The position numbers and the translations under genes were made by a program. From positions 1 through 42,630 of the forward strand of contig JAHDFT010000003.1 in NCBI GenBank assembly GCA_020628015.1: 42,630 bases of DNA, read 5' to 3'. The stretch is from Bacteroidota bacterium. Lineage in GTDB: Bacteria; Bacteroidota; Bacteroidia; Chitinophagales; UBA2359. Below are positions 9,101 to 41,171 of the stretch, piece by piece. The notes beneath the pieces are model-generated. The model saw only the letters and a list, made by a program, of their open reading frames with translations. It searched no databases and was not told the origin of the DNA. How positions within the stretch are numbered: position 1 is the first letter of the stretch; each line of letters begins with the position of its first letter.

Positions 9101-9763
9101 TCGCTTAAGAAAAGCAGCAGTAAAGACTTTCTTGGATTGTTTGTGGTAAGCAACCCCCCAAACAGATCCTATATCCACACCTCTTGCGACTAATTCTGGG
9201 GAATTAGTTTGCCCTTGGCTGGTATATGGGAAACTTACCAATACATCTGCTGTAGCAGCATTTCCACCTCCCATAGGATCACCATTTACATAACATGGGA
9301 TCACAATTTCAGGATTGGATTGACAATAATTGTCTGGATGGTAAATTCCTAAAGTTAAATTACAAAATGGACTAGTTGTAAATTGTGTAGGAGAAGCAGA
9401 AGCGACATAGCCAGTTGGCAAACCCGCAAACTCTACTCTTATCCTTTTACCATTGGGTACACTTAATACAAAATAACCATCTGCATCTGTGGTAACAGGT
9501 CCATAAGGCACCCCATCAGCATCATAAGCACTAACAGTAATACCACTCATACCAAATTCATGTGCACCTTGTACACCATCAGCATTAAAGTCATTATAGA
9601 CGATTCCCCCTATATCATTACTTCCCACACAACTTTGCGCCTGTATTTTGCCAGATGCAAGTCCACAACAAACAAATGCCAGTAAGAAAGCAGCTAACCG
9701 CAATCGGCTACTTCCTTTCCTAATGTCTGGTAACATTTTTTTGAAGGTAAATATTTGGTTCAT
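119..9763 (-). CDS. Giant secreted cell-surface adhesin (3214 aa) with a T9SS C-terminal sorting domain
   Basis: N-terminal signal peptide ([23 protein letters not shown]). Two SdrD/Cna-B-like modules ([14 protein letters not shown]...TTDADGYF; [18 protein letters not shown]...[10 protein letters not shown]). 28 tandem ~69-aa Cys-containing Ig-like repeats (C.G..xTLTASGG.sYsWs.G....sItVnPs.TTtYtVTVt...C.dtDqVtVtV). A cadherin/VCBS-like segment (VAVDDNATS...NPLTNDN...[19 protein letters not shown]). The C-terminal ~85 aa resemble the Por/T9SS secretion tail ([13 protein letters not shown]...[10 protein letters not shown]...LGVYVVNL). Confidence 0.9.
1280..7130 (-). repeat. Intragenic tandem array of 28 x ~207-bp coding repeats
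   Basis: I counted 28 occurrences of the [12 protein letters not shown]-type core in the translation. The plus-strand artefact ORFs recur with a 207-210 nt period (4784, 4991, 5201; 6029, 6236). Adjacent units share a 77-bp perfect match (4287-4363 = 4494-4570, offset 207). Confidence 0.9.
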
Positions 9764-25576: not shown

Positions 25577-25646
25577 TTTTCCTTGTTTTTAGTAACAATT
25601 AAATCAATCAACTTAAAAAATAAATAATCTCTAAACACGCTTATCA

Positions 25647-27281
25647 TCAACTTCCTATATGTAATACGCCAGCTACAATATGACTACAAGGCCCTTGACG
25701 TAATTTATTGCTTCGGAAAAAACCACAAGTACATTCCGCTTTAATCACTTTCCCATCTGCATCTAGGGAAATAACAGGTTTAAATACTTTCTTTCCTGTT
25801 ACAGATAGGGTATATTTAGTCAATTCTTTATCTTGCTCTTTTCCTAGTAAATTGACTTTTCCTTCTTTAAATAATTTAGTTGCATATTTAATGCGTTCAT
25901 CTGATTCAGAAGACTTGATTTTGATTTTCTGCTCTAGTAATTTTCGCCAGCGATATTGGCCAGTAATAGGGTCAAACATTGCCTGTCCATGCTTACATAA
26001 TTCTTGTAAAGCTTTAGTAGCGACTTTTTGCTCTAAGTCCAACCATTCTGCAAAGTCTGCTGGTTTACCAGTCAATTTTTTGATTAACGCTTGTTCTACC
26101 TTTTTTACAGTAGCTTTATCAACTTTTCCTATAGCTCCTAGCAAATCAAAACTGGCTTTTTTTGCCCAATCATTAGCCGTCCAGCCTGATAAACCCAAGT
26201 CAAAACGATGGCCATCAATGGAAACTGACCAATAAGAAGGCATTCCTGTTCCTAAAAGTTTGATATGTACTTTTTGGGCATAAGGCAATACTTCTCGCCA
26301 AACCATCAAGCGACGACGACCCCAAATTTTTATGGAACCTTCTTTTTCTCCATTGTATACATAATCATTTTCTTCAACTACGATATTCCAAGGGGCAATA
26401 GTAATACTTGGCTTTTTCCCTTTCTCCAATTTGAATTCCAAATAACGTGGACTCACTCTCTCTTTTTGTCGCTCCAAAACGCCTAGCACTTCTGCCAAAG
26501 TATCTGCACTCAATGTTACCAAAGTACCAGCCATACTTGCTGCCGATTGAACTTGTAGAAAACCATTGACCCAACTATCTGGTAAATCAATTTTCTTTTC
26601 TACTCGTGAACCAGCCGTTGTTGAGACTTCTACTTGCTCGAAGGCTACTTTTAGCCAAGCAGGGCGATAGCTGCGAACTCGGTAAATCTCATCTGCCAAA
26701 GCTGCACTAAAGTCAATATTCGTTGTCCCATATTTTACATCATCAAAAATATCCAGATTTTCTGTAGGCACACTCACCCGTCCATAAACCGACTCATCCA
26801 AAGAAAATGCTTCAAAAATCACACTATCTGGATGCACACTAATCACAGGATCAAACAGCCATCGACGAGCATCTCGTGTTTGCCAAATCCAATTTCGGTA
26901 AGCTCGTTTCGCTTTATTGAAATCTTTTCTTAGTGGAGCCAATTCTGCATTGAGTTCTTTTTTGCGATCAATCCAAGCTTGCTTTTCCTTAGTTAATTTG
27001 GCTTGTTTTTCTAGTACAACTTGCTTTTCCTCGGATAATTCCTTCAAATATTGTGTTTTCACCCATTCTTGATAAGCTGTATGATCTTTCTGTGGCGGTC
27101 GCCAATCACCAATCACCACTTGTCTCAATACCAGCATCAATTTGGCGTAAGCTAGGCTATTTCGCACCATAGCATGTAGCGATACAGGCGGTCGTGAAAG
27201 CTCCGCCGAAAGGGAAAAATGCATTCCCTTATCATCTGCTTTAGCCGTACTTGGCTGATGGTAAGCTTGTGTTAATTGCAT
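25647..27281 (-). CDS. Winged-helix / SWIM zinc-finger protein (retron accessory gene)
   Basis: C-terminal SWIM signature CTCGFFRSNKLRQGPCSH (CxCx(n)CxH). It is preceded by a helical wHTH-like segment (VEQALIKKLTGKPADFAEWL...). There is a coiled-coil segment near the N-terminus. It sits 70 nt upstream of the RT on the same strand. Confidence 0.75.
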   Translation of the reverse strand: MQLTQAYHQPSTAKADDKGMHFSLSAELSRPPVSLHAMVRNSLAYAKLMLVLRQVVIGDWRPPQKDHTAYQEWVKTQYLKELSEEKQVVLEKQAKLTKEKQAWIDRKKELNAELAPLRKDFNKAKRAYRNWIWQTRDARRWLFDPVISVHPDSVIFEAFSLDESVYGRVSVPTENLDIFDDVKYGTTNIDFSAALADEIYRVRSYRPAWLKVAFEQVEVSTTAGSRVEKKIDLPDSWVNGFLQVQSAASMAGTLVTLSADTLAEVLGVLERQKERVSPRYLEFKLEKGKKPSITIAPWNIVVEENDYVYNGEKEGSIKIWGRRRLMVWREVLPYAQKVHIKLLGTGMPSYWSVSIDGHRFDLGLSGWTANDWAKKASFDLLGAIGKVDKATVKKVEQALIKKLTGKPADFAEWLDLEQKVATKALQELCKHGQAMFDPITGQYRWRKLLEQKIKIKSSESDERIKYATKLFKEGKVNLLGKEQDKELTKYTLSVTGKKVFKPVISLDADGKVIKAECTCGFFRSNKLRQGPCSHIVAGVLHIGS

Positions 27282-27344
27282 GATTTTTATTTTAATATAT
27301 TTGGAATAGCTTGTGTAGGAATGACAGATAGTAAAGCATCGGTA

Positions 27345-30182
27345 TTATTTCAATACAAAGTCTCCTAATTGTTCTTCCCCAGCAATTGCCATTTTGGTGA
27401 GTTGTAAAATTGCCCATTCTGCATCCTTCTTATTCTTCCCTTTAGCCATTCTCAGCAAGGCTTTAGGATCAACAGCTAGGGTATTTTCCAAGCGTTCTTT
27501 CACCAATTCCTTCGTTTTTCGTCCTTTATTTTTAGTTCGCAAAACGGCTTCATCAAATCGCTTCATTCGTTTTTGAGCATCTGGATAACGCACCAATAAT
27601 TCCGCAACATATTTTTGAATAAAAGGATCTGTTTGCTCCGATAAATAGCTGATGAGCTGCTCTGGATTTAAATTCGCTTCTTGTTCTTTGGTCAATTGTA
27701 AACCAGCTTCTCGAACCGCACGACGAGGGCTATCACACATCGCCAAAACACGCTCCATCATTTGTCCTTCATATTCTAAGGGTCGCTTAAAAAATGAATG
27801 ACCAAGTTTAAAGGCATCTGGGACATCAGTTTCCATTAATCGAAGTGCGAAAGGCAGGTCAAAATCCTGTTGCTTGGCTCGTTCGATACTCCATTTTCGA
27901 ATGCTATTTAATGCATGAGCGCAACCCTGTAATAAGGCTTCTGATTCAGGTGCAAAAAGGGCTTCATTGGCTTCGACCCACTCAAATAAGCGTTTTTCTA
28001 ATGGGCTGTGGGTAATGTCTAAAATCGCTATATCACTAGTATTATTAAGTGTTTCATTAGCGGCTGGATAGTTTAAGGTACGCTTATATAGTGTATCTTT
28101 TTCTTCCACCATCAATTGATTCAAAATCTTCACCCAACAATTTGCCCCATTTGCTCCTTTCAAATAATCAACAAAAGGTTTTTCTAGCATCCCCCATTGT
28201 CGATTGTGTGTAGTAGAGACCATTTTTACTACTGTATCTACATTTAAATTATGGAACAACTTATCAAAAACAGGTGCTAGTTTATAAATATAATCTGGAC
28301 GTGAATTCACTAATCGTTGTAGGGTATCAAAGTAAATATTTTGGTAATGCTTGTCAAAATGCTCCATCACTACCTGATGAAAGCGGTTGATTTTTTTAGC
28401 ATAAAACTGATTGACAACAGCTCGCACTATTTGACGGAAAGAATTCTCTTTTAATCGACCATTCAATAGAAATTCTAAGGTATTTTTATGTACCCATTCA
28501 TCTTCATCTACTAAACATTGAGCTACCTGATAAGCAACAAAATTCGTCTGCTTATTATTTCTTTGTTTAATCTCTTCAATAATTGCATCCCGATCTTCTA
28601 GGTTTTTCAATCGAGGCAGCCAGCGGTAAAAATTGCGCTGGGCTACGTTGATCAAGGCTTTCTTGGCTGGTTCATAAAATAAAGGATGTCCATGTTTCAT
28701 TAAATCGAAGGGACGGCCATAATTAATTGCCCAAGTAATGAAATTACTATGATACTTAATCAATACTTTGGCTCCATATTCTGATTGGATTGTATTTTTA
28801 TAAGGCTTATAAGCCATACTGCGCCAGTATAATCTATTGGCAAGATTCCGAATGGTATTTTTGGGGTCATTTTGTAAAGACAATAAATACCAACCAAAAT
28901 CCACGATTGAAGGAGAATCATTAATGACAAAACGCTCAACATCTCTAAGTCTGAGTTTTTGGATTGGATATTTACTCGCTAAAGCAGGATAAAATACTTT
29001 TTTCTGTTCTGCGGAAGCATGATCTAAAGCTCCCAACCAACTTTTGACATCTTTTTGTTTGCTCTTTTCAATATTACTTTTTACTAAATTCGTTAATCGC
29101 CAATCATTTTGGGCTAAAATACCCACCAAATTTTGCTTAATCAACATAGAAGGAATCATACTGGCTTTTCCTAAAACTAAATTCAAACCTACACCTACTC
29201 GATTTTTCGGCTTTTTATTATCTAATTGAGGGAAAATGAGTGTACTCAGATAGGTGACGAACATGGACATATCAAAATTGCGAAGGTTCACTTGATTTTT
29301 ACTTGGTTGTTCTTCTCCTGTAAAAAATGAGGTAATTCGTCCTAGAAAAGAATTTGGAGCTTCTCCTTGTTTTTGAGGAGTGGAAATCGCCTTTTGAATG
29401 ACTTTTTTAGTGTTCGCAGGAGCGTAATAATAGGTTTTTGCCCAAGTTTCCATGTTTTTTTCTTCTCCTTTTTGAAGCAAGTTCCAAGATGCTTTTGCAG
29501 CAAAGCTTTGTAACCAAGGGCTATTACTATTGAAAAAAGGCAATAAAAGATGTGGAGCTACAGTAGGTACAGCTTTTCGATTACGCATTAATACTTTGGC
29601 AATAAACTCATAAATTTCTGGTGCTAAAACCTTACCATGCCAGAGTTTCAACAAATCATCTACATGGCGATCCCAAATATCACTTGCTTTGTCCTCTTTT
29701 CGATAAATATTGGGTATTTCTTTATTAGCAGCATATATCCCTCGCCCATTTCGACGCTGTTTAACTCGTTTAGAATTTCCTTGAATAATGTTCAGTAAAA
29801 CCCATTGATGAGCATGATCTACTGCTTGTTTTTGTAACTGAAATAAGGCTAGACAAATTTCAACATATATGGCTTCATTTTCTTTGGATAATTTTCGCAA
29901 ATAACGGGCAGCTCGTCGCTTCATATAAGCCAATGTTGCAGCTGTAGGATATAGATTTTTACGATCTTCAACTAAAGGAGCCTGATCAATACGAGCAATA
30001 ATGATGGCTAATGCTCTAGGCATAGGTTCACTTTGCCCTTCAAGTTTTTTGTATAATTGTTTTATAAGTTTCCAATGCCCTTTAACGAATGGAGCTTCCT
30101 GAAGATAGGTATTAAGTTTCTGCTGTTCTGTCTTATCTTTTGGTGGGAAATGATCTATGAGGGAGGTATTTATTGGTAGCAT
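27345..30182 (-). CDS. Large all-alpha ARM/HEAT-like repeat protein (retron accessory gene)
   Basis: About 945 aa, helix-rich, with no catalytic motif seen. It is the first ORF after the structured ncRNA. I place the start at ATG 30182 (MLPINTSL...) because the TTG-initiated extension to 30251 overlaps the a2 arm and msd flank of the ncRNA. Confidence 0.65.
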   Translation of the reverse strand: MLPINTSLIDHFPPKDKTEQQKLNTYLQEAPFVKGHWKLIKQLYKKLEGQSEPMPRALAIIIARIDQAPLVEDRKNLYPTAATLAYMKRRAARYLRKLSKENEAIYVEICLALFQLQKQAVDHAHQWVLLNIIQGNSKRVKQRRNGRGIYAANKEIPNIYRKEDKASDIWDRHVDDLLKLWHGKVLAPEIYEFIAKVLMRNRKAVPTVAPHLLLPFFNSNSPWLQSFAAKASWNLLQKGEEKNMETWAKTYYYAPANTKKVIQKAISTPQKQGEAPNSFLGRITSFFTGEEQPSKNQVNLRNFDMSMFVTYLSTLIFPQLDNKKPKNRVGVGLNLVLGKASMIPSMLIKQNLVGILAQNDWRLTNLVKSNIEKSKQKDVKSWLGALDHASAEQKKVFYPALASKYPIQKLRLRDVERFVINDSPSIVDFGWYLLSLQNDPKNTIRNLANRLYWRSMAYKPYKNTIQSEYGAKVLIKYHSNFITWAINYGRPFDLMKHGHPLFYEPAKKALINVAQRNFYRWLPRLKNLEDRDAIIEEIKQRNNKQTNFVAYQVAQCLVDEDEWVHKNTLEFLLNGRLKENSFRQIVRAVVNQFYAKKINRFHQVVMEHFDKHYQNIYFDTLQRLVNSRPDYIYKLAPVFDKLFHNLNVDTVVKMVSTTHNRQWGMLEKPFVDYLKGANGANCWVKILNQLMVEEKDTLYKRTLNYPAANETLNNTSDIAILDITHSPLEKRLFEWVEANEALFAPESEALLQGCAHALNSIRKWSIERAKQQDFDLPFALRLMETDVPDAFKLGHSFFKRPLEYEGQMMERVLAMCDSPRRAVREAGLQLTKEQEANLNPEQLISYLSEQTDPFIQKYVAELLVRYPDAQKRMKRFDEAVLRTKNKGRKTKELVKERLENTLAVDPKALLRMAKGKNKKDAEWAILQLTKMAIAGEEQLGDFVLK

Positions 30183-30204
30183 GGGAGAAGCATATATAAA
30201 TGTG

Positions 30205-30455
30205 AAAAAAAAATAGAGCTTTGCTACTAACAAGCTTAGGACCAGGGCCAATCACTGTAAGCGGCGGTGCCCCCTATGGATACCTTTAAATCCGAATTGT
30301 GAGCAACGCTAACCCAGCGCACTACGGATTTAAAGGTATCCATAGGGGGCTGAAGCCGCTGAATGACATTGGTGTCTGGTGAAGTAATGGTGGCTTGACA
30401 ACGACCACGGCGAAACACCGCAGTATAATTGCTAACAAAGCTCTTTATTTTTAAT
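30205..30455 (-). ncRNA. Candidate retron msr-msd non-coding RNA
   Basis: Read on the minus strand. a1 is GAGCUUUGUUA (plus 30433-30443) and pairs over 11 bp, with one G-U, to a2 UAGCAAAGCUC (plus 30216-30226). a1 is immediately followed by G in a UUAGC context (complement of 30432), as at the branching G of Ec86. Short GC-rich stems follow (30381-30420). Next is a perfect 26-bp hairpin (30269-30294 / 30325-30350, 30-nt loop), extended by gcggc/gccgc (30261-30265 / 30355-30359). A U9 run follows a2. The region is conspicuously GC-rich in an AT-rich genome and lies upstream of a retron-type RT operon. Confidence 0.75.
30261..30359 (-). repeat. Long inverted repeat (predicted msd stem-loop)
   Basis: gccccctatggatacctttaaatccg (30269-30294) is the exact reverse complement of cggatttaaaggtatccatagggggc (30325-30350). 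An outer 5-bp extension is separated by a small internal loop. Confidence 0.9.
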
Positions 30456-30520
30456 ACAAAAAATATTGAAATAGAAGTAACTAGTATCACAGGGTAAGTT
30501 AGGATCTCGTTGGACTCACT

Positions 30521-30814: not shown

Positions 30815-31378
30815 TTAGGATATTTTTTTTAGTAATTCATCATCTGGATACCCCAACATCCTTATATTTCCGTCTGCTTCTACATGAATTTCGACATAAT
30901 TGGCATTCTCCATATCCGCTGCCTTATATCGTTCGGTTAAAAATAATACTTGTTGATTTTCTGAACCTCGCCATTGCAAATTGGTGTTTCGCAAGGCTTC
31001 TACATAGCGACCAGCGATTAGAATATCACAATAATCTAATACGTCTGTTTGTTTTCGCTCTTTTAATTCTGTCAACTCATAACCTGTGTACATCATAATC
31101 GTCAAACCTCGTGCCTTAATTTGTTGACAAAGGGCTAAAGTTTCTTCATATTGATCAAAGGGTTCTCCTCCTAATATGGTAACGCCTTCTATTTCACTTT
31201 CCCAAGCCATAATATCATGCATCAATCGCTCAACGGTCATGATCTGATTCTCCTTGAAGCTCCATGTTTCCTTATTCCAACAGCCTTTACACTTAATAGA
31301 ACAGCCTTGAGTCCAGATCACAAATCGAGTGCCTGGTCCATAAATATGGCTGGTTGGTTCTATGTGGTAAGTATTCAT
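30815..31378 (-). CDS. NrdG-like radical-SAM glycyl-radical-enzyme activase (orphan)
   Basis: GPGTRFVIWTQGCSIKCKGCWNKETW (CX3CX2C in the NrdG/PflA context), ILGGEPF, YTGYELTEL, DILIAGRYV...LQWRGSENQ. These are collinear with E. coli NrdG as I remember it. ATG at 31378 preferred over the TTG at 31426. Confidence 0.8.
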   Translation of the reverse strand: MNTYHIEPTSHIYGPGTRFVIWTQGCSIKCKGCWNKETWSFKENQIMTVERLMHDIMAWESEIEGVTILGGEPFDQYEETLALCQQIKARGLTIMMYTGYELTELKERKQTDVLDYCDILIAGRYVEALRNTNLQWRGSENQQVLFLTERYKAADMENANYVEIHVEADGNIRMLGYPDDELLKKIS

Positions 31379-31472
31379 TATATATAAAATATTAAAATAG
31401 GAATAAAAGCGACTTTTGGTGAGCAAAATGGAACTTTACTCAATGGTGAATCAGTAGGCATTCTCTCATTCA

Positions 31473-31961
31473 TTATCCTTTTACAAGAACTAATTGCGTT
31501 CTACCATTTTTGGTTTTCCTTTGTATTTTGTATCCCATTGCTCTAGCTCTTTCCTCAATTGCCTCTTGTTGCTTTTTCAAGTAGGCTTGCCGTTGTGTTT
31601 GCAAGCGAATGGCTTCTCTCATGGTTGCTTCCTTGATCTTAATTTCTTCTGGATCAGTAGGCTCTCCACCACCTTCATCTTCTTCAGCGGCTGCCAACTT
31701 TCGGTCAACGATGCCGTTATAGGCTTCTTCGAGATATTTTAAGAATGTACGAGCTTTGGCTTTGACCTCCGTATCATAGTGAAATTGAAATCGCCCCAAT
31801 TCGTCCTTGACAAAACAAGCTTTGTGGTGAAATCGCAATTGTGGAATTTCGTAACGGACTCCTTCCTCAATAGGTACTAGATCGTATCCGCATTGTTTTA
31901 CTGCTTCTAGCAAGGTATTTAAGTCCAAAAATGGCGTTAAAGATTTGACAACTACACTCAT
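31473..31961 (-). CDS. DUF1257 (Ycf35-like) family protein with a charged insert
   Basis: N-terminus MSVVVKSLTPFLDLNTLLEAVKQCGYDL and C-terminus MGYKIQRKTKNGRTQLVLVK match the DUF1257 pattern (M..f..i.t...d...L..AL..lGy... / kGY.v.r....dG.i.L.l). It is adjacent to a DUF2997 gene, as is typical. Start moved to ATG 31961. Confidence 0.6.
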   Translation of the reverse strand: MSVVVKSLTPFLDLNTLLEAVKQCGYDLVPIEEGVRYEIPQLRFHHKACFVKDELGRFQFHYDTEVKAKARTFLKYLEEAYNGIVDRKLAAAEEDEGGGEPTDPEEIKIKEATMREAIRLQTQRQAYLKKQQEAIEERARAMGYKIQRKTKNGRTQLVLVKG

Positions 31962-32054
31962 TTTTGTGTGGTTTTGAATGTTAAAAAAGTATCGCATTAG
32001 TCCTAAAATAGATATTTCATGATTTATTTTAAGACTAATACTAAAATAATGGTA

Positions 32055-32264
32055 TTATTTTTTTGCTTTTACTTGCTCTTTGGTAACAGATTTTCTTCCC
32101 TGATAAAAATCATCCGTCTTTTTTACGGAGGCATTTCCCAAATCTGCAATATCCTTCATGAGATTATTGAGTTCATCCATGCACATTTCACCTGTCATAC
32201 CTTCAGTCTTCGCAAGGATTTTCCCATTTTCATCTATATCAATGATGATTTTTTCTTCTTTCAT
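32055..32264 (-). CDS. DUF2997 family small protein
   Basis: 69 aa. IIIDIDENGKILAKTEGMTGEMCMDELNNLMKDIADLG...KTDDFYQ fits the DUF2997 pattern (I.i..dG.v...v.G..G..C.....l...lG.v....t.eyy). Confidence 0.6.
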   Translation of the reverse strand: MKEEKIIIDIDENGKILAKTEGMTGEMCMDELNNLMKDIADLGNASVKKTDDFYQGRKSVTKEQVKAKK

Positions 32265-32347
32265 AATATAGGAGTACTTTAATTTAAAAAAATGATTATG
32301 ACACCAAATTCCCTAGTGAGTTTGGTATAAATCTGAAACTGCTAAAA

Positions 32348-34732
32348 TTAAGCTGTCACAGGTTCTTCTTTAGTGGCACAAAGTATCGCTCCTAGTTTTT
32401 GAGCGTCTTCTTTTGCCCAGTCGTATTCTGACCAACTATTGATGGCTAGATAACGTTTGTTTCCCCAAGTGAATAGATGTCCTCTACGAGGAAGTGATTC
32501 ATTGGGGTAGTCAGCAGAAAAAAGTGGTAAATCAACAATATTGACAACTATTGTTGGTTCCTCATGTTCTGCTGAATTGTCTTTTTGTTTGAGTGCTGTA
32601 TTGGAAGCATAGCGATTTTTGAGAATCGAAGAAAGTGAAGATTTCTTTCTGCCTCCTGATTTCGTACTAACCGTTTGTAATTTAGATTGTTGACTTCTAA
32701 TTCGATTGGTTTGGGAAGTGAATGACTTCCCCATTTCTTTTTCAATGAAAGCCAATCGTTTAGAAATATTTCGCAACTGGTCAGAGAAAACATTGATTTC
32801 TTGGCTATTGCCTTGTAAATATTCCTCATAAGGTGCATCAATATCCTTCATTTCCTTCACCAACAAATCTACACCTCCTGCATCTCGTCCATCTCTACTT
32901 TGCCGCTCTGCTACTCTTTGTAGAGCAACCATTAGATCTTCCCAACCACCTTCTTTCCATTCTTGTTGCTCCATAAATTCTTTCCGCATTCGATTTCGCT
33001 CACTTTCGAGATAACTCCCCTTTGCGTCCATGTCCATATTATCATACATGTTCCCCCACTGACGAGTCAAATTTTGTTTACGTTGCTCTAGCTTTGATAC
33101 CTCTTTCTTGTATTTTTGTTGATTTTCTTCAAACTCTATTTTTGCTTCCTTCACTTTTATATCACTTAACACACTAAAATTCTCCTCATTGAACACGTTA
33201 ATGGCTCGATCTAACTGTTGAATACAACGGTTCACTTCTGCGGTTTGTAATACCGCAATATCCTTTTTCTTCAACTCCTTAATCGTGCTATCTACTTCGA
33301 TAAGTCGCTTTTTGGCTTTTGTCCAACCGCCTAGAATTTTAGATTTTAGGGTATCAGGAATTTCTTCTACTGCCTTGTATAATTCATCTCTTTTTTGTGC
33401 CAATTCATCAACAGTTTTGGAGAATCGACTTTGTGCAGCAATCCATTTTTTGTAGAGTGGTGCGTCTGTTGCCCCTTGTGGTAATTGTTGTGGTTCTAAC
33501 TTGATTTCATATTTCACTTCCAAAGCATACAAGTCCTCTTCTGGCATAAATTCATCCCATACTGGATTTTTCAAAGCACCTAATTCTACTTTTTTAATCG
33601 CAGGCTCTGCCTCAGCTTCTTGGCTAATCTCAATAGATTTGGACAAATCATCTACTAGTAACAAAGGAGCTTCGACAGCTTGAAATTGCTTCTTTGCATG
33701 AAAATGATACTTAGATTTATTTGTCAAATCATTAGCATAAGCTAATAAATCCTTGCATTGACCTTCGTTTAATTTCAATAAATAGACTAGATTTTCCTGT
33801 TTATAAGCATCCATATCCAAAATGGGGAGCCAATATATTTCATTATTATCAAGAATAACAAAATTCGCCAATGTGCTTTCAATAGCCTCCAAATGATTCC
33901 CTTTTTCTGCTAATTGCTTGACCAAATCATTGGAACGCTGTTGCAGCGTACATAAAATCCTTGCTTCTTTGAGTTTGTCTACAGGTATTTTTAAGGGATT
34001 CGTTTGATTATTATCCATACGATGTAAAATCATTTTCACATCTGTAGCTCCTGCTAATTTTCTAGCTAAAAAGCCATTAATACCATCCCAACCAAAATAA
34101 GGTGTAGGTAATCCAATCTTATTGAAAGGTGATCCCTCTACTTGTTTGGGCATTTCCAAATGACTTTCTTGAAGAATCTCAAAACCTGCTTTTTCCCAAA
34201 AAGTTTGACAGAAAAAGGCAAACAAATTAGTCAATTGCGATGCAGAGAGTGCGGTCAACAAGCCTTTTTGCTTCACGACTGCATTATCTAAGAGATGGTG
34301 GTTATAGATAAAGCCAGACTGTTTTTCCTTTTTGGGATCAATCAATACAAAAGTACCAACAACTGAAGCACCACATCGGATCAAAGCTTGACCAGCTAGT
34401 GCCTTAAGATCATTGAGGGAAACGACATCTTGATCGTCAGGGCGTTGGTCTATTAATAAGTAAAGGCGTACATTTCGCTCGTTTATCGCTCTTAAACAGG
34501 CTTCCTCAATTGCTGTTCCTGCTTGAAAAAAGGGGGTTTGAAGACAAATGACTTCCTCTGCTTGGTCAATCGCATAGGCAATCGTTGCTTCAATATCTGT
34601 TAAAGCAAAGTGCGTCCATTCTTTGAATTCTGGCTGCGGTTTGACCGTCTGTTTTTCCCAAAAATGGGTTAGCAACTTCTGCCGATTATCTTGAACGAAT
34701 GTTTTACTTATTGGTACAATAGATGATGACAT
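32348..34732 (-). CDS. Hypothetical 794-aa protein: N-terminal PLD-like (apparently inactivated) module plus a long coiled-coil and a C-terminal domain
   Basis: Residues ~45-160 (AIDQAEEVICLQTPFF...NVRLYLLIDQRP...VGTFVLIDPKK...SGFIYN) and ~265-300 (ARILC...LANFVILDNNEIYW) resemble the two halves of a PLD/Nuc fold. However, H and K of HxKxxxxD are replaced (V.T / L.N). The central ~250 aa are K/E/Q-rich coiled-coil. Confidence 0.4.
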   Translation of the reverse strand: MSSSIVPISKTFVQDNRQKLLTHFWEKQTVKPQPEFKEWTHFALTDIEATIAYAIDQAEEVICLQTPFFQAGTAIEEACLRAINERNVRLYLLIDQRPDDQDVVSLNDLKALAGQALIRCGASVVGTFVLIDPKKEKQSGFIYNHHLLDNAVVKQKGLLTALSASQLTNLFAFFCQTFWEKAGFEILQESHLEMPKQVEGSPFNKIGLPTPYFGWDGINGFLARKLAGATDVKMILHRMDNNQTNPLKIPVDKLKEARILCTLQQRSNDLVKQLAEKGNHLEAIESTLANFVILDNNEIYWLPILDMDAYKQENLVYLLKLNEGQCKDLLAYANDLTNKSKYHFHAKKQFQAVEAPLLLVDDLSKSIEISQEAEAEPAIKKVELGALKNPVWDEFMPEEDLYALEVKYEIKLEPQQLPQGATDAPLYKKWIAAQSRFSKTVDELAQKRDELYKAVEEIPDTLKSKILGGWTKAKKRLIEVDSTIKELKKKDIAVLQTAEVNRCIQQLDRAINVFNEENFSVLSDIKVKEAKIEFEENQQKYKKEVSKLEQRKQNLTRQWGNMYDNMDMDAKGSYLESERNRMRKEFMEQQEWKEGGWEDLMVALQRVAERQSRDGRDAGGVDLLVKEMKDIDAPYEEYLQGNSQEINVFSDQLRNISKRLAFIEKEMGKSFTSQTNRIRSQQSKLQTVSTKSGGRKKSSLSSILKNRYASNTALKQKDNSAEHEEPTIVVNIVDLPLFSADYPNESLPRRGHLFTWGNKRYLAINSWSEYDWAKEDAQKLGAILCATKEEPVTA

Positions 34733-34788
34733 TGTTTTGTCTTTTCTTTAAAAAAGTAATAATGGTAAAATAACTTAATACATAGCAT

Positions 34789-35880
34789 TTATACCGCCAA
34801 ATCATAAGGTGCCGCTAGGTGCCAAAATGCTTCTGATTTGAGGCTATCTTCGTCCGCTTTGGTTCTTTCCAAAATATCTTCTACAGTCAAAGTATCTAGT
34901 TCATGATGTTTGAAGGCAGCATTTTGGTTAATTTGTAGCACCATTTGATCTAAACGCTTAGGACGGATGTAGTTTTTTTGTACTTCCTCCATCACTAACC
35001 AATCTCGCCATTGGTTAGCATCTGTCTCATTAGCAGGCACAACGGCAATGTCTTTCAAAGTCACCTCATCAAATCTACCATAAGGAGACTCTGGTACATT
35101 AAGCGTCAGATGTGGAATAAGGAAGCGTTTTTTAGTTGTTGGGGGTAATTCCTCACTAAATCCAACCGCTATACATCCTGCGGCTTCATGCCACTCTAAA
35201 TTACCTGCGCCTGCAACTGCCTGAAGCACTTCTACTTGTGATTGGCTTAATTTTGTTTCATGATGTAAATCAATCGGCATTCTTGTACTACTCAAACGGA
35301 GTTCTCCATCTAACACGCAAATTGACTCATCGGTTGTAGAGGAATACCAAGTCCATTCTAAATTTGCAGAATCATTTCCTCTGAAGTAGCCCTCCTCATT
35401 GACTCCTAGCCCTAAAACTTGAATATCAACTGTTTGTCCCCCACTTTTTAGCGAATAGGTTTGATTGATAAAATTTTGTAAGGGCAATTGATGCAGGGAG
35501 CCACCTGTTTCTTTAGCTTCTTCTTCGGCAACTTCTGGTTTTACTCGCTCAAAATGTACAAAATGTTCACCAATCAACGGATCATTCGAGATGACCCATA
35601 TTTTGTATAAGCCTTCTTCTTTTTGCCAGAATCTTCCGCTTTCTAGTACCCCTTTTCCTGTTTCGGTAATGCTCCACCCTTCTCCATCTACTGCTAACAA
35701 GTCCATGCTGAATAGATAGCGAGCAATTTGGCGAGATAATGGATCATTTTGAGTATCTATTTCGCCTTTATCTAATGCTTCTAAAAATTCCTGGATATCA
35801 GTACGCTCCGTAGCTACTTTTAAGCTGCCATATACCTGATAAACTGGTATTTCTACTGTTCGCTTTAGTGTTAATGCCAT
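34789..35880 (-). CDS. Hypothetical 363-aa protein (possible N-terminal winged-helix)
   Basis: Long ORF, codirectional, with 38-56 nt gaps to its neighbours. The first ~90 aa have a wHTH-like pattern. No catalytic motif recognised. Confidence 0.5.
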   Translation of the reverse strand: MALTLKRTVEIPVYQVYGSLKVATERTDIQEFLEALDKGEIDTQNDPLSRQIARYLFSMDLLAVDGEGWSITETGKGVLESGRFWQKEEGLYKIWVISNDPLIGEHFVHFERVKPEVAEEEAKETGGSLHQLPLQNFINQTYSLKSGGQTVDIQVLGLGVNEEGYFRGNDSANLEWTWYSSTTDESICVLDGELRLSSTRMPIDLHHETKLSQSQVEVLQAVAGAGNLEWHEAAGCIAVGFSEELPPTTKKRFLIPHLTLNVPESPYGRFDEVTLKDIAVVPANETDANQWRDWLVMEEVQKNYIRPKRLDQMVLQINQNAAFKHHELDTLTVEDILERTKADEDSLKSEAFWHLAAPYDLAV

Positions 35881-35918
35881 TGATTGAATCCTTATTTATT
35901 ATTTAGTAATGGACTATA

Positions 35919-38900
35919 TTAATGTTGTAAATATTCGACCAATTCCCGCCATTCCTCAGAAATCGTTTGTGTGCCGAAGGTATCTTGTTTTCCAACAATC
36001 ACTAGTTGATATTTAGCACGAGATAAAGCCAAATTCAAGCGATTAGGGCTATCTGGAAAGGCGGTTTGTGGATTGCCTAAACAGAGGAAAACAACATCTG
36101 CCTCTTGTCCTTGAAAAGTTTCGACCGTTCCTACGTGAATATCGACATTTCCTTTTTGGTAAAGCAGCTTCGTTGTCTTGTCTTCACAAAGGTCTTGCAC
36201 CATTAAACACAGTTTTCGTTTTTGATTGGGTTGGAAACATAGACAGGCTACTTTATAATTCCCTTCTTGTTGATTTGCCCAATCGCAGAAATGTTGTAAT
36301 TCCTCCTTCAAAACAGGAATTTCTTGTTCTGTCGTATTGAGCCAAGTTACTCTGGATGCATGCCGATCAAAGTCCCAATCTCGCTCATTACTTAGTGCAG
36401 GTACATCTTTCAAGGTATTTTCATAGAAGACTTTGCTTACCAATTGGGTAATATCTGGATGCATTCGATGTTGTACTTCTAGTCTGCTATGTCTTAACCC
36501 TTCAAGGATTTCATCAGCAAATCCTTTGGTTAATGTGCTGGTATATTTACTGCGTAATCGACCAATTACCCCATTGTGAATGCTTTCTAATAGGGATGGT
36601 AATGCCATACGACTAATGTGTATCACTTTACCAGCAATATTTAAGGACTGTGGGAATAATCGGTGTAATCGTCTCTTTAGTTGTCTTGCTCTTTGATTGC
36701 GATCTGCTCTACTTGTAAATTGTAGTTCAAATTGCCTAATAATCGCTTGACTCAATATTCTTGACCAATTTTCTCGATGGAGAATGGTTTCGATATACTG
36801 AGCAATTTTTAGTGATTCATTGATAATTGTTCCATCTGTACTTACAATTCCTGTTGCAAAATCTGGACTTGCTTGTCGCATAAAGGCAAGGTGACGGAAT
36901 CCATGTTTATAGTATTGCCAGTTTTTTCCTAAAAAGATAAAATATTCTGGTAAAAGATCAAGTACTTCATGTGTCAAAGACTCATCTAACAAAATGAAAT
37001 CAGCAATATGAGCTGCTAATCTATTTTCTTGTAAAGCTTCTGGGGAAAAGATTTGCATCCATCCTTTTGCTTTTAACTTTTCTCTTGAAATGGTTATCCA
37101 TTTTTTGCCTACTAGTTCAAATTCATTATAATCGTCGTCACTTTCTTCCATTCTTACCCCTATTTCCTTGACCATTGCATCTAAAACTTCGGCAGGTAAT
37201 GGTAGAATAAAGCGATTGTGAAAGTCTTGCTTTACTCCTTCTTGACCAGCAATGCTTGTGTTGCTATATTTCAACAAAGTTTCTAGGTAAAAACAGGCTT
37301 TTTGAAGGGCATCAGGAATCCCTTTCATCTTAGAGAAACGCAAATTACCAATTAATCGCTCTACAGAATGCCTATTGGTATAAGGAGTTAATTGCATGGT
37401 GTCTCCTGCGAGTATCCATTTTTTAGCAAAAACGGCTGGAAGGAGGAAGTCTTGGAAGGTAATGTCGTTGCTTTCATCAACGATTAGGTAGTCAAAGTAA
37501 GGACTTAATGGCTGATGGGTATCAGTTGTCAACCACTGACGCATCATTGGATGTTCCCACATTTCTTTAACAGGTGCGACTACCAAATTCGCTGCCTCCA
37601 AAATTAACTGCTCTGGTCGGCTTGTTTCTTCATCAGTATAGGCTTCCCAATGAAAAACACGCAAATCATTATCAACTCGATCTAACTCCCCTACTCGAAG
37701 TGGGAAAGTTTCTTTTTGAAAATCAGGATGTTGTATAATTTGTCGTAGTAAATGATCGGCTCCTTGTGGTGTTGCACTACATAATAGGATTCGTGGATAT
37801 TGTTTGGATGCTTTGGCTTTTTGTAGAATTTGCCAGATTAACTCTAGTAAAACGGTCGTTTTTCCAGATCCAGGCGCACCTTCCAAAAAGGCAAAGTCAG
37901 GAGTTGCCAATGCTCTTTTGACAAAATCTCTTTGTGCCTTACAACCTTTTCGTTTCCCATTTTTTAGTAATAACCACTTACCAGTCTGTATGTCTGCCTC
38001 CTCAAATGCTTCCCATTGAACCTCCTGAATGGGTTCAAAGATTTTCATTAATGGATAAAGGTGAGCGTGAGGTTGTGCTAGTAATCGAGCCATGACCTCT
38101 AATTGATGCTCTGGTGGACGGCTATCTGCATGAATAAAAATCAATTCGGTTGCGGGTAGGATATATTTTGGTGCAACGACTTCATCTAGAAACATAAAAG
38201 ACTTTTCAGCCAATACAATTCTTCTTTCTGCTTCATTTCGCAATACAATATTGTAGACTTTCCCATATTCATCCATGACAGAATCAATCGTCTCATCAAA
38301 GAAGTAGGCAAAGTCATCATCTGATTTGTAGGATTCATTAACCAAATCTAATTCAATCCAGAATTGATCTTTGGCTTCCTGTTCATGATCTTCTACTTTA
38401 TGCAACCGCAATTCCATTCCATTGACGGTATGGAAAAGGGCATCTTCTCGATAGCTATCTTTGTAGATGGCAAAGGTTAAAGAATTGGGATCAATCACCT
38501 CCTCATAATCAAAATTGAGGATATTTTCTAGGCGAATATCCATAGCCAATTCCTCGATAGTTGCTAGATGTTCTGGCAGTTTGGGTATGGTATGGCTACA
38601 AACAACTGCTTCTGTCAAATCGAAATTGACAATTTGTAGATCGGGATATTGATAGAGGTCAATTTGTTCAATAATCCGGAAGCCTGTATCTTCTCCGTTA
38701 ATAAGCAATTGGGTGGAGGGCTGAATAAATGCATCTAGGAATAATTGTTTATCCTTAAATTCAAAGTCTAGTTGCTCTCCATAGGTAGTTACTGTATTGA
38801 CCTCCCCTGTTTCTACCCATGCCAATTCCAATTCAAAAGCTTCGAATCCCCAATGAACACGCCCTAGAAAAGCTTCGGTTAATGGCAAACGAATGAAGAT

Positions 38901-39275
38901 GCCTTCCTCATTCATTTGGAAATCATCTGAAGTAATCTCAAACTGTTTTTTGAGCTTTCTTACTCGAATTGGCTCAAAATAGTCTGTTTCAAAGATTTCT
39001 TCTTCATCTCTTACCTTGTACCAACCTTTTCCAGCAAACACTTGCACACAGGTATGCGGCTTGATGCGAAACCACTTCATTTGTGGCATCAATTGCACGA
39101 TCTCCAAATCAATATGTTTCCAGTGGGCAGCTACTTTTTTGCTTCGCAAGGATTCAATCGCTGCTTCTAGGTAATATTGAAAGGGATGTAAAGCATCTTT
39201 GACATACTCCTGCAATTGAAGTGCTTGATCGGCATCTCCTTCTGGGATTAGTTGTTTATAATAAAGCAGTGACAT
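35919..39275 (-). CDS. Superfamily-1 (Upf1/Dna2/COG1112-like) helicase with a ~440-aa unknown N-terminal region
   Basis: Walker A LEGAPGSGKTT, Walker B DYLIVDESNDI, motif III LAGDTMQL, motif V/VI VGTVETFQGQEADVVFL and LNLALSRAKYQLVIVG. Confidence 0.85.
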   Translation of the reverse strand: MSLLYYKQLIPEGDADQALQLQEYVKDALHPFQYYLEAAIESLRSKKVAAHWKHIDLEIVQLMPQMKWFRIKPHTCVQVFAGKGWYKVRDEEEIFETDYFEPIRVRKLKKQFEITSDDFQMNEEGIFIRLPLTEAFLGRVHWGFEAFELELAWVETGEVNTVTTYGEQLDFEFKDKQLFLDAFIQPSTQLLINGEDTGFRIIEQIDLYQYPDLQIVNFDLTEAVVCSHTIPKLPEHLATIEELAMDIRLENILNFDYEEVIDPNSLTFAIYKDSYREDALFHTVNGMELRLHKVEDHEQEAKDQFWIELDLVNESYKSDDDFAYFFDETIDSVMDEYGKVYNIVLRNEAERRIVLAEKSFMFLDEVVAPKYILPATELIFIHADSRPPEHQLEVMARLLAQPHAHLYPLMKIFEPIQEVQWEAFEEADIQTGKWLLLKNGKRKGCKAQRDFVKRALATPDFAFLEGAPGSGKTTVLLELIWQILQKAKASKQYPRILLCSATPQGADHLLRQIIQHPDFQKETFPLRVGELDRVDNDLRVFHWEAYTDEETSRPEQLILEAANLVVAPVKEMWEHPMMRQWLTTDTHQPLSPYFDYLIVDESNDITFQDFLLPAVFAKKWILAGDTMQLTPYTNRHSVERLIGNLRFSKMKGIPDALQKACFYLETLLKYSNTSIAGQEGVKQDFHNRFILPLPAEVLDAMVKEIGVRMEESDDDYNEFELVGKKWITISREKLKAKGWMQIFSPEALQENRLAAHIADFILLDESLTHEVLDLLPEYFIFLGKNWQYYKHGFRHLAFMRQASPDFATGIVSTDGTIINESLKIAQYIETILHRENWSRILSQAIIRQFELQFTSRADRNQRARQLKRRLHRLFPQSLNIAGKVIHISRMALPSLLESIHNGVIGRLRSKYTSTLTKGFADEILEGLRHSRLEVQHRMHPDITQLVSKVFYENTLKDVPALSNERDWDFDRHASRVTWLNTTEQEIPVLKEELQHFCDWANQQEGNYKVACLCFQPNQKRKLCLMVQDLCEDKTTKLLYQKGNVDIHVGTVETFQGQEADVVFLCLGNPQTAFPDSPNRLNLALSRAKYQLVIVGKQDTFGTQTISEEWRELVEYLQH

Positions 39276-39323
39276 TCTTTTTCAATCAAGGATGATAACA
39301 ATAGTATTTAGTCGAAAATAAAA

Positions 39324-40973
39324 TTACTTATTTCCACCTCTCATAAATGGGTTCATATAGCCTTGCTTAGACTTATTCCCTCGTTTTTCTCCGCCTTCTA
39401 CTTCTACATTATCTGGTTTACCAGCAGAGGCTTTTACTGCACGTCCATCAGCCCAACGACGCATAGTGACGATTTTTTCGGCCATGGTACGTGAGATCGG
39501 GAAGGTTCGTCTGATGGCATCTTGGATGTCTTCATTCGTTACTTCTCTATCTTGGTCGAATGCGGTAAATAATGCTTCTTTTACTGCCTCTTCCAATTCC
39601 GCACCAGAATAGCCTTTACTCATTTCTGCTAGTTTGTAGCAATCGTAATCTTCTGGATTTCTGTTCTTTTTACGAAGATGGATATTGACGATTTCTAATC
39701 GTTCATCTAAGTTTGGAAGGTCAACAAAGAAGATTTCATCCACACGACCTTTACGAAGTAGTTCAGGAGGCAAACCAGCGATATTGTTGGCGGTTGCTAC
39801 TACGAAAACAGGCTTTTTGCGTTCCTGCATCCAGGTTAGGAAAGTACCTAATACCCTTGAACTCGTACCACCGTCCATTTCTCCACCTCTTGTACCTAAT
39901 CCTTTTTCGATCTCATCCACCCATAATACAGAAGGTGCTAAAGCTTCAGCAACCGATAAGGCTCCTCTAATATTTCTTTCTGATTCCCCTACGATTCCTG
40001 CAAAGATTTTACCCATATCCATCTTTAATAATGGGAATTTCCATTGAGCAGCGACAGCCTTCGCACACAAACTTTTACCCGTACCTGGTATACCTAATAA
40101 TAGGATTCCTCTAGGCGTATCCAAACCGAACTCGGCAGCTCCTTCGTTAAAGGCTTTTTGTCGTCTTTTGAGCCAGTCTAGCAGATTGGTCAATCCTCCA
40201 ATATCTGAGAAATTGGCGGATGGGGAGTAGTATTCTAGGAAACCACTCTTTTTGATAATGTTTTCTTTCTCTCCAATAATGATAGGAATTTCATCATCGG
40301 TTAATTTATCATTGGTGACATAAGCTCGACTAAAAGCCACTTCAGCCTCCATGATTGTCAAACCTAGTGCTGCATTTAGTAAGCTATCAGATTTATTCGC
40401 CTCTCCATCAAAACCATATGTATAACACACTTTATCATAAATATCACCAATATCTTCTTTGGTAGGTAAAGGCATGACCAGCATTTGCATGTCTTTTTCC
40501 AATTCTGGTGGCATAAATTGGTAAGGCTGTGCTAAGATAAGCGTTTTATTTTCATGACTAGCTAAAGCAATATTCCTCAATTGTCTAATATGAGTATGGG
40601 CTTTATTGGTATCTTCGATTCTAAGATCAACATGAAAATCTTCCATGACCAAAATCATATCACTGCCTGCTTCTTGAAAATAGCGAAGAACTTCTTCCCC
40701 ACTTTGTAATTCATTGGCTTGTCGCCATTGAGAATCTCCAAATGGATCAACTGTTTCAACTTCAAAATCTTGTTCAAAAACTAGTTTGTCTGGATTCCAT
40801 CTTTTTAATCCTTCAATTCTATTCCATGCAAACCATTTTGCGCCTAAGTGATCGGCCGCCATATTGATCAGGGCGTGTACTCGAAGCGTTTCATAACTCA
40901 CCAACTGTATGATCTTTGCATTGGCTTTTATCGTATTGATAAATTTACTTTCAAAATCGTCTTCGTGATGCAT
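39324..40973 (-). CDS. Ycf46-like AAA+ ATPase
   Basis: [17 protein letters not shown], Walker [16 protein letters not shown], Walker [19 protein letters not shown]...[44 protein letters not shown]. This matches the plastid/cyanobacterial Ycf46 pattern, including a degenerate N-terminal domain. Confidence 0.8.
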
Positions 40974-41171
40974 ATCTCTTTTTTAATTGATTGATATTTT
41001 ATTGATTACCTGTAAAAGGAGGTGTTAATAACATGTATAATAATATAATTATATCAGGAGACAAATGATAAACTGTAATTATAAGATATTTCTACTCAAA
41101 TAACAAGGAATGCTTATGAATTGTACTTATTAATGACACTATTGACTAATTTTCATATATGATGTATTATC

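Follow-up and report, generated by a model that had tools for sequence, protein, structure and literature searches.

The stretch of DNA analysed here (the window) comprises 42,630 nt of a Bacteroidota bacterium (assembly GCA_020628015.1, contig JAHDFT010000003.1, positions 1-42,630, forward strand), and between positions 30815 and 40973 it carries a cassette of seven consecutive open reading frames (ORFs), all on the minus strand, in the order AAA+ ATPase, superfamily 1 (SF1) helicase, a protein of 363 residues (p363), a protein of 794 residues (p794), a DUF2997 protein (p69), a DUF1257-like protein (p174) and a radical S-adenosylmethionine (SAM) enzyme (rSAM). A first-pass annotation made from the letters of the window had proposed this cluster as a candidate conflict system, and the operon-like layout that it described was recovered in full, with all seven ORFs at the same coordinates and strand and with gaps of 38-94 nt between them (Table 1). 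When the longest ORFs are taken, the intergenic gaps are 48, 38, 56, 83, 57 and 46 nt; because the homologues of p174 and of the rSAM begin at the ATGs at 31961 and 31378, we set these two starts inward, which widens two of the gaps to 93-94 nt, and the gene calls of sister contigs likewise give an rSAM of 187 residues. The roughly 200 bp of non-coding sequence reported ahead of the first gene measured 198 nt; this region presumably holds the cassette promoter, and it marks the edge of the cassette on the side of the housekeeping gene rlmN. A scan of the window for sigma-70 promoters and terminators stayed at background level, the sigma-70 consensus being uninformative for a Bacteroidota genome, and no known RNA was recognised in the window by comparison with Rfam.

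Table 1. Coordinates of the cassette genes and of the features that adjoin them, numbered along the window.
Feature	Coordinates	Strand	Assignment and remarks
Classical-clade AAA+ ATPase, 549 aa	39324..40973	-	PF00004, E = 1e-30, plus AAA_lid_3
SF1 (UPF1/IGHMBP2/MkoA-like) helicase, 1118 aa	35919..39275	-	AAA_11 + AAA_12, residues 447-1097
p363, signature protein of the helicase trio, 363 aa	34789..35880	-	No library family
p794, 794 aa	32348..34732	-	PLD fold ~45-185, coiled coil ~430-700, C-terminal domain 747-790
DUF2997 protein (p69), 69 aa	32055..32264	-	PF11211 in orthologues
DUF1257-like (Ycf35-family) protein (p174), 162 aa from ATG 31961	31473..31961	-	hhalign; longest ORF starts at 31997 (174 aa)
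NrdG-like rSAM, 187 aa from ATG 31378	30815..31378	-	Longest ORF from TTG 31426 (203 aa)
Non-coding upstream region	40974..41171	.	198 nt between AAA+ start and upstream rlmN
Type XIII retron	24197-30452	-	Same direction as cassette, 11-gene array; directly downstream

Library and profile searches confirmed or sharpened all of the domain assignments proposed for the cassette proteins. The AAA+ ATPase consists of a ~250-residue N-terminal domain followed by a single AAA domain, in which Walker A (GIPGTGKS, residues 294-301), Walker B (VLWVDEIEK, 349-357) and the arginine fingers are intact and the pore-loop region reads FAGIVGESE (324-332). It matches phrog_8638 of PHROGs over its full length (3e-135), is CDC48/PAN/FtsH-like in NCBIfam, and has the D2 domains of p97/Cdc48 as its nearest relatives in the PDB (2e-74), none of these PDB relatives matching the N-terminal domain; its identity to twelve cassette orthologues is 47-60%. 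The arrangement of one classical AAA domain after an N-terminal domain of this size, associated with DUF1257 and DUF2997, is that of Ycf46-type proteins. The same association was found in phages, metagenome-assembled genomes (MAGs) and metagenomes, and the ATPase is 37-43% identical to genes annotated as 'AAA family ATPase' on cyanobacterial plasmids. At the extreme C-terminus (residues 541-543; 39324-39347), an N-P-F tripeptide preceded by a conserved KLKQE is invariant in 12 of 12 cassette orthologues and is reminiscent of the docking tails on other AAA+ rings.

The helicase core is intact, with motif I GAPGSGKT (residues 466-473), motif II IVDESN (598-603) and motif VI LALSRAK (1082-1088), and in NCBIfam it matches TIGR00376, the IGHMBP2 family (8.5e-32). 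Among PADLOC profiles it matches MkoA of the Mokosh system (2.6e-48, 163 bits) and MkoC (5.9e-20); the MkoA match is split into three stretches, the best of which covers residues 929-1116 in the C-terminal helicase region, and stays well under a full-length score. No match to the N-terminal ~440 residues was found in Pfam, NCBIfam, PHROG or PDB sequences, and this part is specific to the family. The helicase also had no tblastn match among 50,697 GenBank phage genomes.

The next protein, p363, matches nothing in Pfam, NCBIfam, PHROGs or PADLOC. Word-indexed searches for homologues came back nearly empty, p794 retrieving only itself, the p363 alignment 6 matches and the helicase N-terminus 2 fragments. 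An exhaustive HMMER search of 1.84 billion representative sequences returned 581 representative clusters of the p363 family at E <= 1e-3 and 304 at E <= 1e-10, so the earlier emptiness reflects limited sensitivity and not genuine rarity of hits; judged by these sequence counts, the family is rare but diverse. Most homologues are ~170 residues longer than the window protein and carry a C-terminal domain with an invariant HDRY...D...G signature; the short form lacking this HDRY domain is found in the Asgard and Treponema loci as well as in the window. Profile searches of PDB sequences gave nothing for the HDRY domain and, apart from a weak match to eS19, nothing for p363. An early AlphaFold2 model built on 6 sequences had a pLDDT of 63 and gave meaningless Foldseek matches; it was superseded by a model from a 66-sequence alignment (pLDDT 93.2, pTM 0.84), which predicts a beta-rich protein with a C-terminal helical bundle (residues 285-361). 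With this model, Foldseek found nothing at E <= 1e-3 in the PDB or BFVD (TM score at most 0.14), and the sole part with small local structure matches is a helix/beta-hairpin unit of ~55 residues (~27-81). This unit resembles a winged helix, and the weak sequence match to eS19 fits the suggestion that p363 is winged helix-turn-helix-like. By tblastn, p363 was not detected in 50,697 GenBank phage genomes or 72,556 plasmids.

For p794, single-sequence scans gave no family match in Pfam, NCBIfam, PHROGs or PADLOC, and none to MkoB of Mokosh. The family profile placed its N-terminal domain in the PLD fold, with PDB sequence matches to FAM83B (a pseudo-PLD; 3e-7), NucT (0.01), Nuc (0.04) and TrmB (0.3). 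The catalytic HKD motif is absent, G-x-F standing in place of H-x-K in all 9-11 aligned members; in the window protein this is G126-x-F (LIRCGASVVGTFVLIDP, residues 117-133), and the family consensus CLIRxxxxxxGxxxLIDP has the nearly invariant G126 at the position expected for His and lacks the Lys. Since no member of the family retains the catalytic His or Lys, p794 is a pseudo-nuclease. FAM83 and TrmB exemplify dead PLD folds that serve as binding modules, and p794 resembles them in having a PLD fold that has lost its catalytic residues (FAM83B being the best PDB match), but their contexts, kinase scaffolds of eukaryotes and a sugar sensor of archaea, are unrelated to the cassette. Residues ~250-400 look like a second degenerate PLD-like repeat, as read from the alignment with no search behind it. 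The central region matches coiled-coil proteins only (keratin, myosin, Rad50) and the C-terminal domain of ~45 residues is conserved as LPxxGxL[YF]...RYLAI, so that the original description of p794 as a coiled-coil protein was correct but incomplete, the dead PLD fold at its N-terminus having escaped it.

The two small proteins belong to families that also keep company elsewhere. The window DUF2997 protein scores below the PF11211 threshold (18.7 bits against a gathering score of 24.1, E = 1.6e-3), and its orthologues match this family in 10 of 10 cases (best E = 2.2e-9). The motif GMTGEMC (22-28), with G-x2-G-x2-C invariant, is part of a set of invariant residues comprising I6, I10, G14, I16, A18, G22, G25 and C28. 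For p174, no Pfam (PF06868) match was obtained with any of 10 orthologues, and a first hhalign comparison with DUF1257 gave 12%; with 13-sequence profiles, in which the canonical set was made up of 13 members from related loci confirmed by Pfam (1e-23), the probability rose to 97.3% in global and 95.5% in local mode. Together with its position beside DUF2997, which equals that of DUF1257 in phages, a Verrucomicrobia MAG and cyanobacteria, this profile match identifies p174 as a probable divergent member of DUF1257 with a coiled-coil insert; its N-terminus (MSxxxKxxTP) and C-terminus (MGYKIQ...TQLVLVKG, residues 142-162) are conserved. Profile searches of PDB sequences found nothing for either DUF2997 or DUF1257.

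The rSAM at the end of the cassette exceeds the cutoff of the NrdG family TIGR02491 (134.7 bits against 126.1), matches Fer4_12 (6e-41) and has the motifs of an activase, namely the cluster-binding CSIKCKGCWN (26-35, CX3CX2C), GGEPF (70-74) and RGSENQ (137-142). It shares with NrdG and PflA the sequence family, these motifs and a small size, but differs from them in three respects: no NRDD domain was found among the scanned ORFs of the window or in any cassette, and no other glycyl-radical enzyme accompanies it; it is obligately linked to the AAA+ ATPase; and it has a family-specific, beta-hairpin-like C-terminal extension (VEIHVEADGNIRMLGYPDD, 162-180). The extension is present in all copies associated with the module described below and is missing from the canonical NrdG that stands beside NrdD in locus L023, a separate pair lying upstream of the cassette there. 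The module rSAM is distinct from canonical NrdG. We noticed that the tail pattern (xEIxIDxxGxIxIxGFPD) resembles the N-terminal beta-hairpin of DUF2997 (IxIxIDExGKIxAETEG); hhalign aligned the two in register at just 17%, so that a copy of DUF2997 in the tail was not accepted and stays a hint. Glycyl-radical-like motifs (R-V-x-G-aromatic) at G55 in the AAA N-domain, at G751 in the p794 C-terminus and at G143-Y144 in DUF1257 were also rejected, and no glycyl-radical claim is made for them because conservation does not extend to the upstream Arg and because these domains are also found in the absence of the rSAM.

To follow the cassette through other genomes, we scanned one genome per species (185,579 species genomes) with the AAA protein; the scans were seeded with the AAA alignment because that of p363 was too divergent. 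This yielded 18 AAA loci, in 13 of which the helicase adjoins the AAA gene, and further loci came from Logan/ENA (L023, L024), JGI metagenomes (L030-L032, L036) and IMG/VR (L110, L111). The complete seven-gene set was found in the same order in L001-L004, L007-L010, L023, L032, L110 and L111, and in a rearranged order in the Asgard locus L013, which brings the complete loci to 13. Seven others are cut by contig ends (L005, L006, L011, L012, L030, L031, L036), and L024 is degraded by frameshifts. The carriers are Bacteroidota, two Treponema, an Anaerovoracaceae, a Bacillus, a Thermotogaceae and one unclassified bacterium, together with a Methanomassiliicoccales and the Asgard archaeon 'Ca. Harpocratesius', so that at least seven lineages are covered, two of them archaeal. 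Loss of synteny among homologues, which the first-pass annotation had named as grounds for giving up its proposal, was not what we observed: gene order is strictly kept from phylum to phylum and between bacteria and archaea, and 4-nt gene overlaps are common in the orthologous loci. The genes flanking the 13 cassette loci have no family in common; the unit therefore extends from the AAA gene to the rSAM gene, and on the same ground we ruled out a further conserved gene, an eighth, ahead of the AAA gene.

Although the seven genes are co-conserved in the same order, they do not form a single indivisible cluster. Two portable modules make up the cassette, and each of them is also found alone: module 1 consists of the SF1 helicase, p363 and p794, and module 2, the more general of the two, of the AAA+ ATPase, DUF2997, the DUF1257-like protein and the rSAM. 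In L013 the two are arranged one after the other, as helicase-p363-p794 and then rSAM-AAA-DUF2997-DUF1257-like. The trio occurs without AAA, DUF2997 and rSAM in L025 (1-9679) and L108 (3152-12381), where p363 is of the long, HDRY-bearing form, the third member is p794-like and the companions are a ~210-residue protein, a protein of 373-378 residues and a 70-residue Cys-rich (CxxC) protein; these companions may serve the same sensor as an alternative executive module.

Module 2 without the trio occurs in many metagenomic loci with varied partners, which include a membrane protein with a ComEA-like HhH domain (HHH_3, 5e-11) plus a second DUF1257-like protein (14 loci), a 930-residue WD40 protein plus an Hsp70-like ATPase (7 loci), and a 526-residue protein plus a superfamily 2 (SF2) helicase. 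Metagenomic AAA loci with 3 kb or more of sequence to either side numbered 32; the rSAM plus DUF2997 or the DUF1257-like protein was present in 15 of them, and none of these genes in 14. The phages RHph_I4 and HJ05 and ~20 IMG/VR contigs carry the AAA gene with DUF1257 and/or DUF2997 and no rSAM, and ~13 further viral contigs carry the module 2 rSAM as well. A bare rSAM-AAA pair lies on the Treponema succinifaciens plasmid pTRESU01 (L189, 61913-64068), inside a contractile-injection-system (CIS) locus that includes VgrG/Pvc8 and baseplate protein V; its AAA protein is 42% identical to that of the window and its rSAM carries the same C-terminal tail. DUF2997 and DUF1257 were not detected at this CIS locus, and the window cassette is without CIS genes.

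As far as we checked, the cassette is undescribed, in agreement with the statement of the first-pass annotation that it matched no named system. Against PADLOC-DB v2.0.0, including its PDC candidates, the four proteins p363, p794, p69 and p174 gave no match at E <= 0.01, leaving the signature proteins blank, and no paper describing the cassette was found. A full-text search of about 8.3 million papers and preprints, outside of which closed-access articles lay, located DUF2997 or DUF1257 in five papers, none of which concerned defence, found the terms 'NrdG-like' and 'Ycf46-like' not in use and returned no description of the cassette; nor is this gene set described in the papers on Ophion, on domain-centric discovery (2026), on BREX diversity (2026) or on archaeal dark matter. 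Partial likenesses to defence systems do exist. A radical-SAM enzyme within a defence operon, or a candidate one, recalls pVip and Ophion, but the cassette enzyme belongs to another rSAM subfamily, matches pVip only at 7.5e-7 over the generic cluster-binding region and has other partners. The ATPase likewise recalls IetAS in being a classical-clade AAA+ protein (IetA, 2.7e-22); that match is limited to the AAA domain, the subtilase partner is missing, and the score of 75 compares with an NCBI IteA cutoff of 510.

The cassette is self-contained and horizontally spread, and its most likely reading, to which we give roughly even odds, is a conflict (anti-virus or anti-plasmid) system of a new, modular kind. 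Indirect support comes from the patchy distribution, which looks like horizontal spread with varying insertion sites, the unrelated flanks, the swapping of partners and the defence neighbours. The last include the retron beside the cassette in the window and, without background correction, matches to Piwi/pAgo, LmuA (Lamassu), YhcG, a CBASS cyclase and several PDC candidates among 54 flanking ORFs of the GTDB loci; in addition, L024 is followed by UvrD and DarT-NADAR (DarTG). What has to be qualified is the role of module 2: since it is also common in phages and on plasmids, and its AAA-rSAM pair occurs in a CIS locus, that role need not be immunity as such.

The composition of the cassette suggests how such a system might operate. 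UPF1-like helicases translocate 5'-3' on RNA or DNA, p97-type AAA+ rings thread or remodel proteins, and activases of the NrdG/PflA type take a hydrogen atom from a partner protein after binding one of its loops. Module 1 would be the part that engages nucleic acid and recognises foreign RNA or DNA, its helicase acting as an intact UPF1/MkoA-like translocase and p794 as a scaffold of dead PLD fold, coiled coil and C-terminal domain. Recognition would license module 2, a portable executive or activating unit in which the AAA+ protein, by homology a p97-type hexamer, would unfold or remodel a protein, with DUF2997 and the DUF1257-like protein as putative adaptors or substrates. Since the rSAM belongs to an activase family that acts on loops of partner proteins, we infer that its radical chemistry targets one of the proteins in the complex and does not serve a ribonucleotide reductase, and its strict linkage to the AAA protein, down to the bare pair of the CIS locus, together with its tail, argues for a protein substrate common to both. 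A viperin-like modification of nucleotides is less likely because of the rSAM subfamily, viperins acting on nucleotides and the NrdG family on proteins. The outcome would be an ATP- and SAM-dependent action of module 2 that blocks the invader or the infected cell.

Several observations weigh against a conflict system. The ancestral role of module 2 was probably not immunity, given its occurrence without the rSAM in phages and the related genes in cyanobacteria. In the short-form cassette no effector nuclease, toxin or protease is recognisable, the PLD fold being dead and the HDRY domain absent. Glycyl radicals are oxygen-labile, and the cassette nevertheless occurs in a Bacillus and in a Bacteroidota bacterium with type IX secretion. 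Most flanks of the GTDB loci are housekeeping genes (gyrase B, IF-2, pyruvate kinase, exonuclease VII), and two IMG/VR contigs related to each other, L110 and L111, bear the complete cassette.

If the cassette is a defence system, its chemistry would be unprecedented among named systems, in that an rSAM of the glycyl-radical-activase type is tied to a p97-like unfoldase, and it would bring new parts in p363, with no structural match in the PDB or BFVD, and in the dead-PLD scaffold p794. Module 2, seen as it is with several sets of partners and, in the form of its AAA-rSAM pair, in the CIS locus, may be a general building block of conflict systems. The presence of the cassette in Asgard archaea and in bacteria indicates a wide horizontal reach and suggests that it works independently of its host.

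A broader proposal, which we offer tentatively and rate as fairly unlikely, is that module 2 is a widespread radical-based switch for the activation or inactivation of proteins, with interchangeable sensors and with ycf46/ycf35 plus DUF2997 as its rSAM-less relatives. The rSAM would place a radical, or a modification derived from one, on a small partner that the AAA+ protein presents or resets, and the helicase trio, the membrane HhH protein, the WD40/Hsp70 pair, the SF2 helicase and the contractile injection systems would be the sensors. Were this true, a function for ycf46, ycf35 and DUF2997 would follow; in any case ycf46 and ycf35 are orphan genes of plastids and cyanobacteria, and a bacterial operon with all of the partners makes their function testable.

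The cyanobacterial relatives also lend themselves to a different explanation, in which a Ycf46-type AAA+ protein, Ycf35/DUF2997, an Fe-S enzyme and an RNA helicase remodel RNA-protein complexes in housekeeping or stress quality control. Cyanobacteria keep a conserved DUF2997-ycf35 (DUF1257)-ferredoxin gene cluster, and their AAA protein Ycf46 is encoded elsewhere in the genome, in a multi-stress operon. The cassette shares with the cyanobacterial and plastid set of Ycf46, Ycf35, DUF2997 and the ferredoxin Fed7 the same three protein families, and its order DUF2997, DUF1257, Fe-S protein is that of cluster g in Synechocystis-type genomes. UPF1/IGHMBP2-type helicases are classically RNA-surveillance enzymes, which suits quality control, as do the many housekeeping flanks. 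Differences, however, are plain: the Fe-S partner of the cassette is a radical-SAM activase and not a ferredoxin, its DUF1257 has a coiled-coil insert, and its genes stand in one mobile operon with the helicase trio and not as conserved chromosomal genes. Moreover, the occurrence is sporadic (in the 185,579 species genomes the patterns used gave 13 matches, and the p363 clusters number 581 in 1.84 billion proteins), the position of the locus is different in each genome, archaea and bacteria share it with AAA identities of just 45-58%, partner genes are exchanged in modular fashion, and defence genes lie near several loci. Nothing in this pattern fits a core cellular function, and we regard quality control as improbable.

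We are just as doubtful that the cassette serves a phage or other mobile element, whether in replication, takeover or anti-defence, from a prophage, integrative element or plasmid. Some 30 of 80 IMG/VR contigs, several of them longer than 100 kb, and the two cultured phages named above carry AAA-DUF1257-DUF2997, whether or not the rSAM accompanies it, and AAA homologues (E <= 1e-40) are present on 680 plasmids, 574 of them conjugative and most from Klebsiella, Escherichia, Citrobacter and Salmonella. The two IMG/VR contigs with the full cassette and the phage-like set upstream of the cassette in L023, with NrdDG and thymidylate kinase, point the same way. The module 1 proteins tell against it, as neither the helicase nor p363 had a tblastn match in the GenBank phages and p363 had none in the plasmids. 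In the window, the cassette is bordered by the chromosomal rlmN on one side and by a retron on the other, neither a tRNA nor an integrase or transposase was found near it, and the flanks of the GTDB loci are mostly chromosomal housekeeping genes. Presence on viral contigs is itself indecisive, since phages and prophages themselves often carry defence systems.

It is very unlikely, in our estimate, that the cassette is an elaborated Mokosh system in which an MkoA-type helicase and a PLD partner defend and the other five genes are accessory. The likeness is to Mokosh type I, in which a large, N-terminally extended SF1 helicase of the UPF1-like kind is likewise encoded close to a PLD-fold protein, and it is carried by the MkoA and MkoC matches of the helicase, whose core is clearly related to MkoA, and by the place of p794, one gene beyond p363 downstream of the helicase. 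Yet the best MkoA stretch is confined to the helicase region at 163 bits, far short of a full-length match, and the N-terminus of the helicase appears unrelated. The catalytic HxK(x)4D of MkoB is absent from p794, as are the His and Lys from its whole family, and no cassette protein matches MkoB. Furthermore, p363, the AAA+ protein, DUF2997, the DUF1257-like protein and the rSAM, and so the entire four-gene unit, have no Mokosh counterpart; and Mokosh consists of two genes or one fused gene, whereas the cassette has seven that are co-conserved and even its minimal trio still contains p363. Finally, that the rSAM is an ordinary activase of anaerobic ribonucleotide reductase adjoining unrelated genes by accident is scarcely credible, for although it passes the NCBI NrdG equivalog cutoff and is ~35% identical to the NrdG of T4-type phages, it is kept at the cassette end across phyla at 44-55% identity, has no NRDD domain among the scanned window ORFs, coexists in L023 with that genome's own canonical NrdG-NrdD pair, and bears an extension confined to AAA-linked copies.

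The surroundings of the cassette vary from locus to locus. In L023, the upstream genes (1332-4550) encode NrdG-NrdD, thymidylate kinase and another kinase, and a 481-residue radical-SAM protein and a metallophosphatase lie downstream; this neighbour set looks phage-like or related to nucleotide metabolism. In the window, the retron that had been noted beside the cassette is indeed directly adjacent and is of type XIII. Its reverse transcriptase (24197-25576, 459 residues) matches the retron St85-family model (6e-65), its 968-residue accessory protein (27345-30251) matches the PADLOC profiles WGR_XIII and HEAT-ARM_XIII (~1e-22), and a 544-residue protein had no family match. As no homologue of the retron proteins was found in the 19 other cassette loci tested, the retron is a neighbour and not a component of the cassette. 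A likely msr/msd non-coding RNA of the retron lies at 30207-30452 on the minus strand, with a hairpin of 31-bp arms (30269-30350, 94% complementary) enclosed by a 20-nt inverted repeat (30207-30226 / 30433-30452), a folding energy of -111.9 kcal/mol and a z-score of -11.2; it was not recognised by Rfam, and the 84-residue ORF that overlaps it (30236-30490) is probably spurious. Chromosomal genes in the window are rlmN and asnB, and at its other end a protein of 3214 residues (119-9763, minus strand), whose features assign the contig to Bacteroidota, combines many Ig-like repeats (CHU_C-associated Ig_7, SdrD_B, Big_9) with Por_Secre_tail and CHU_C, a C-terminal sorting domain of type IX secretion.

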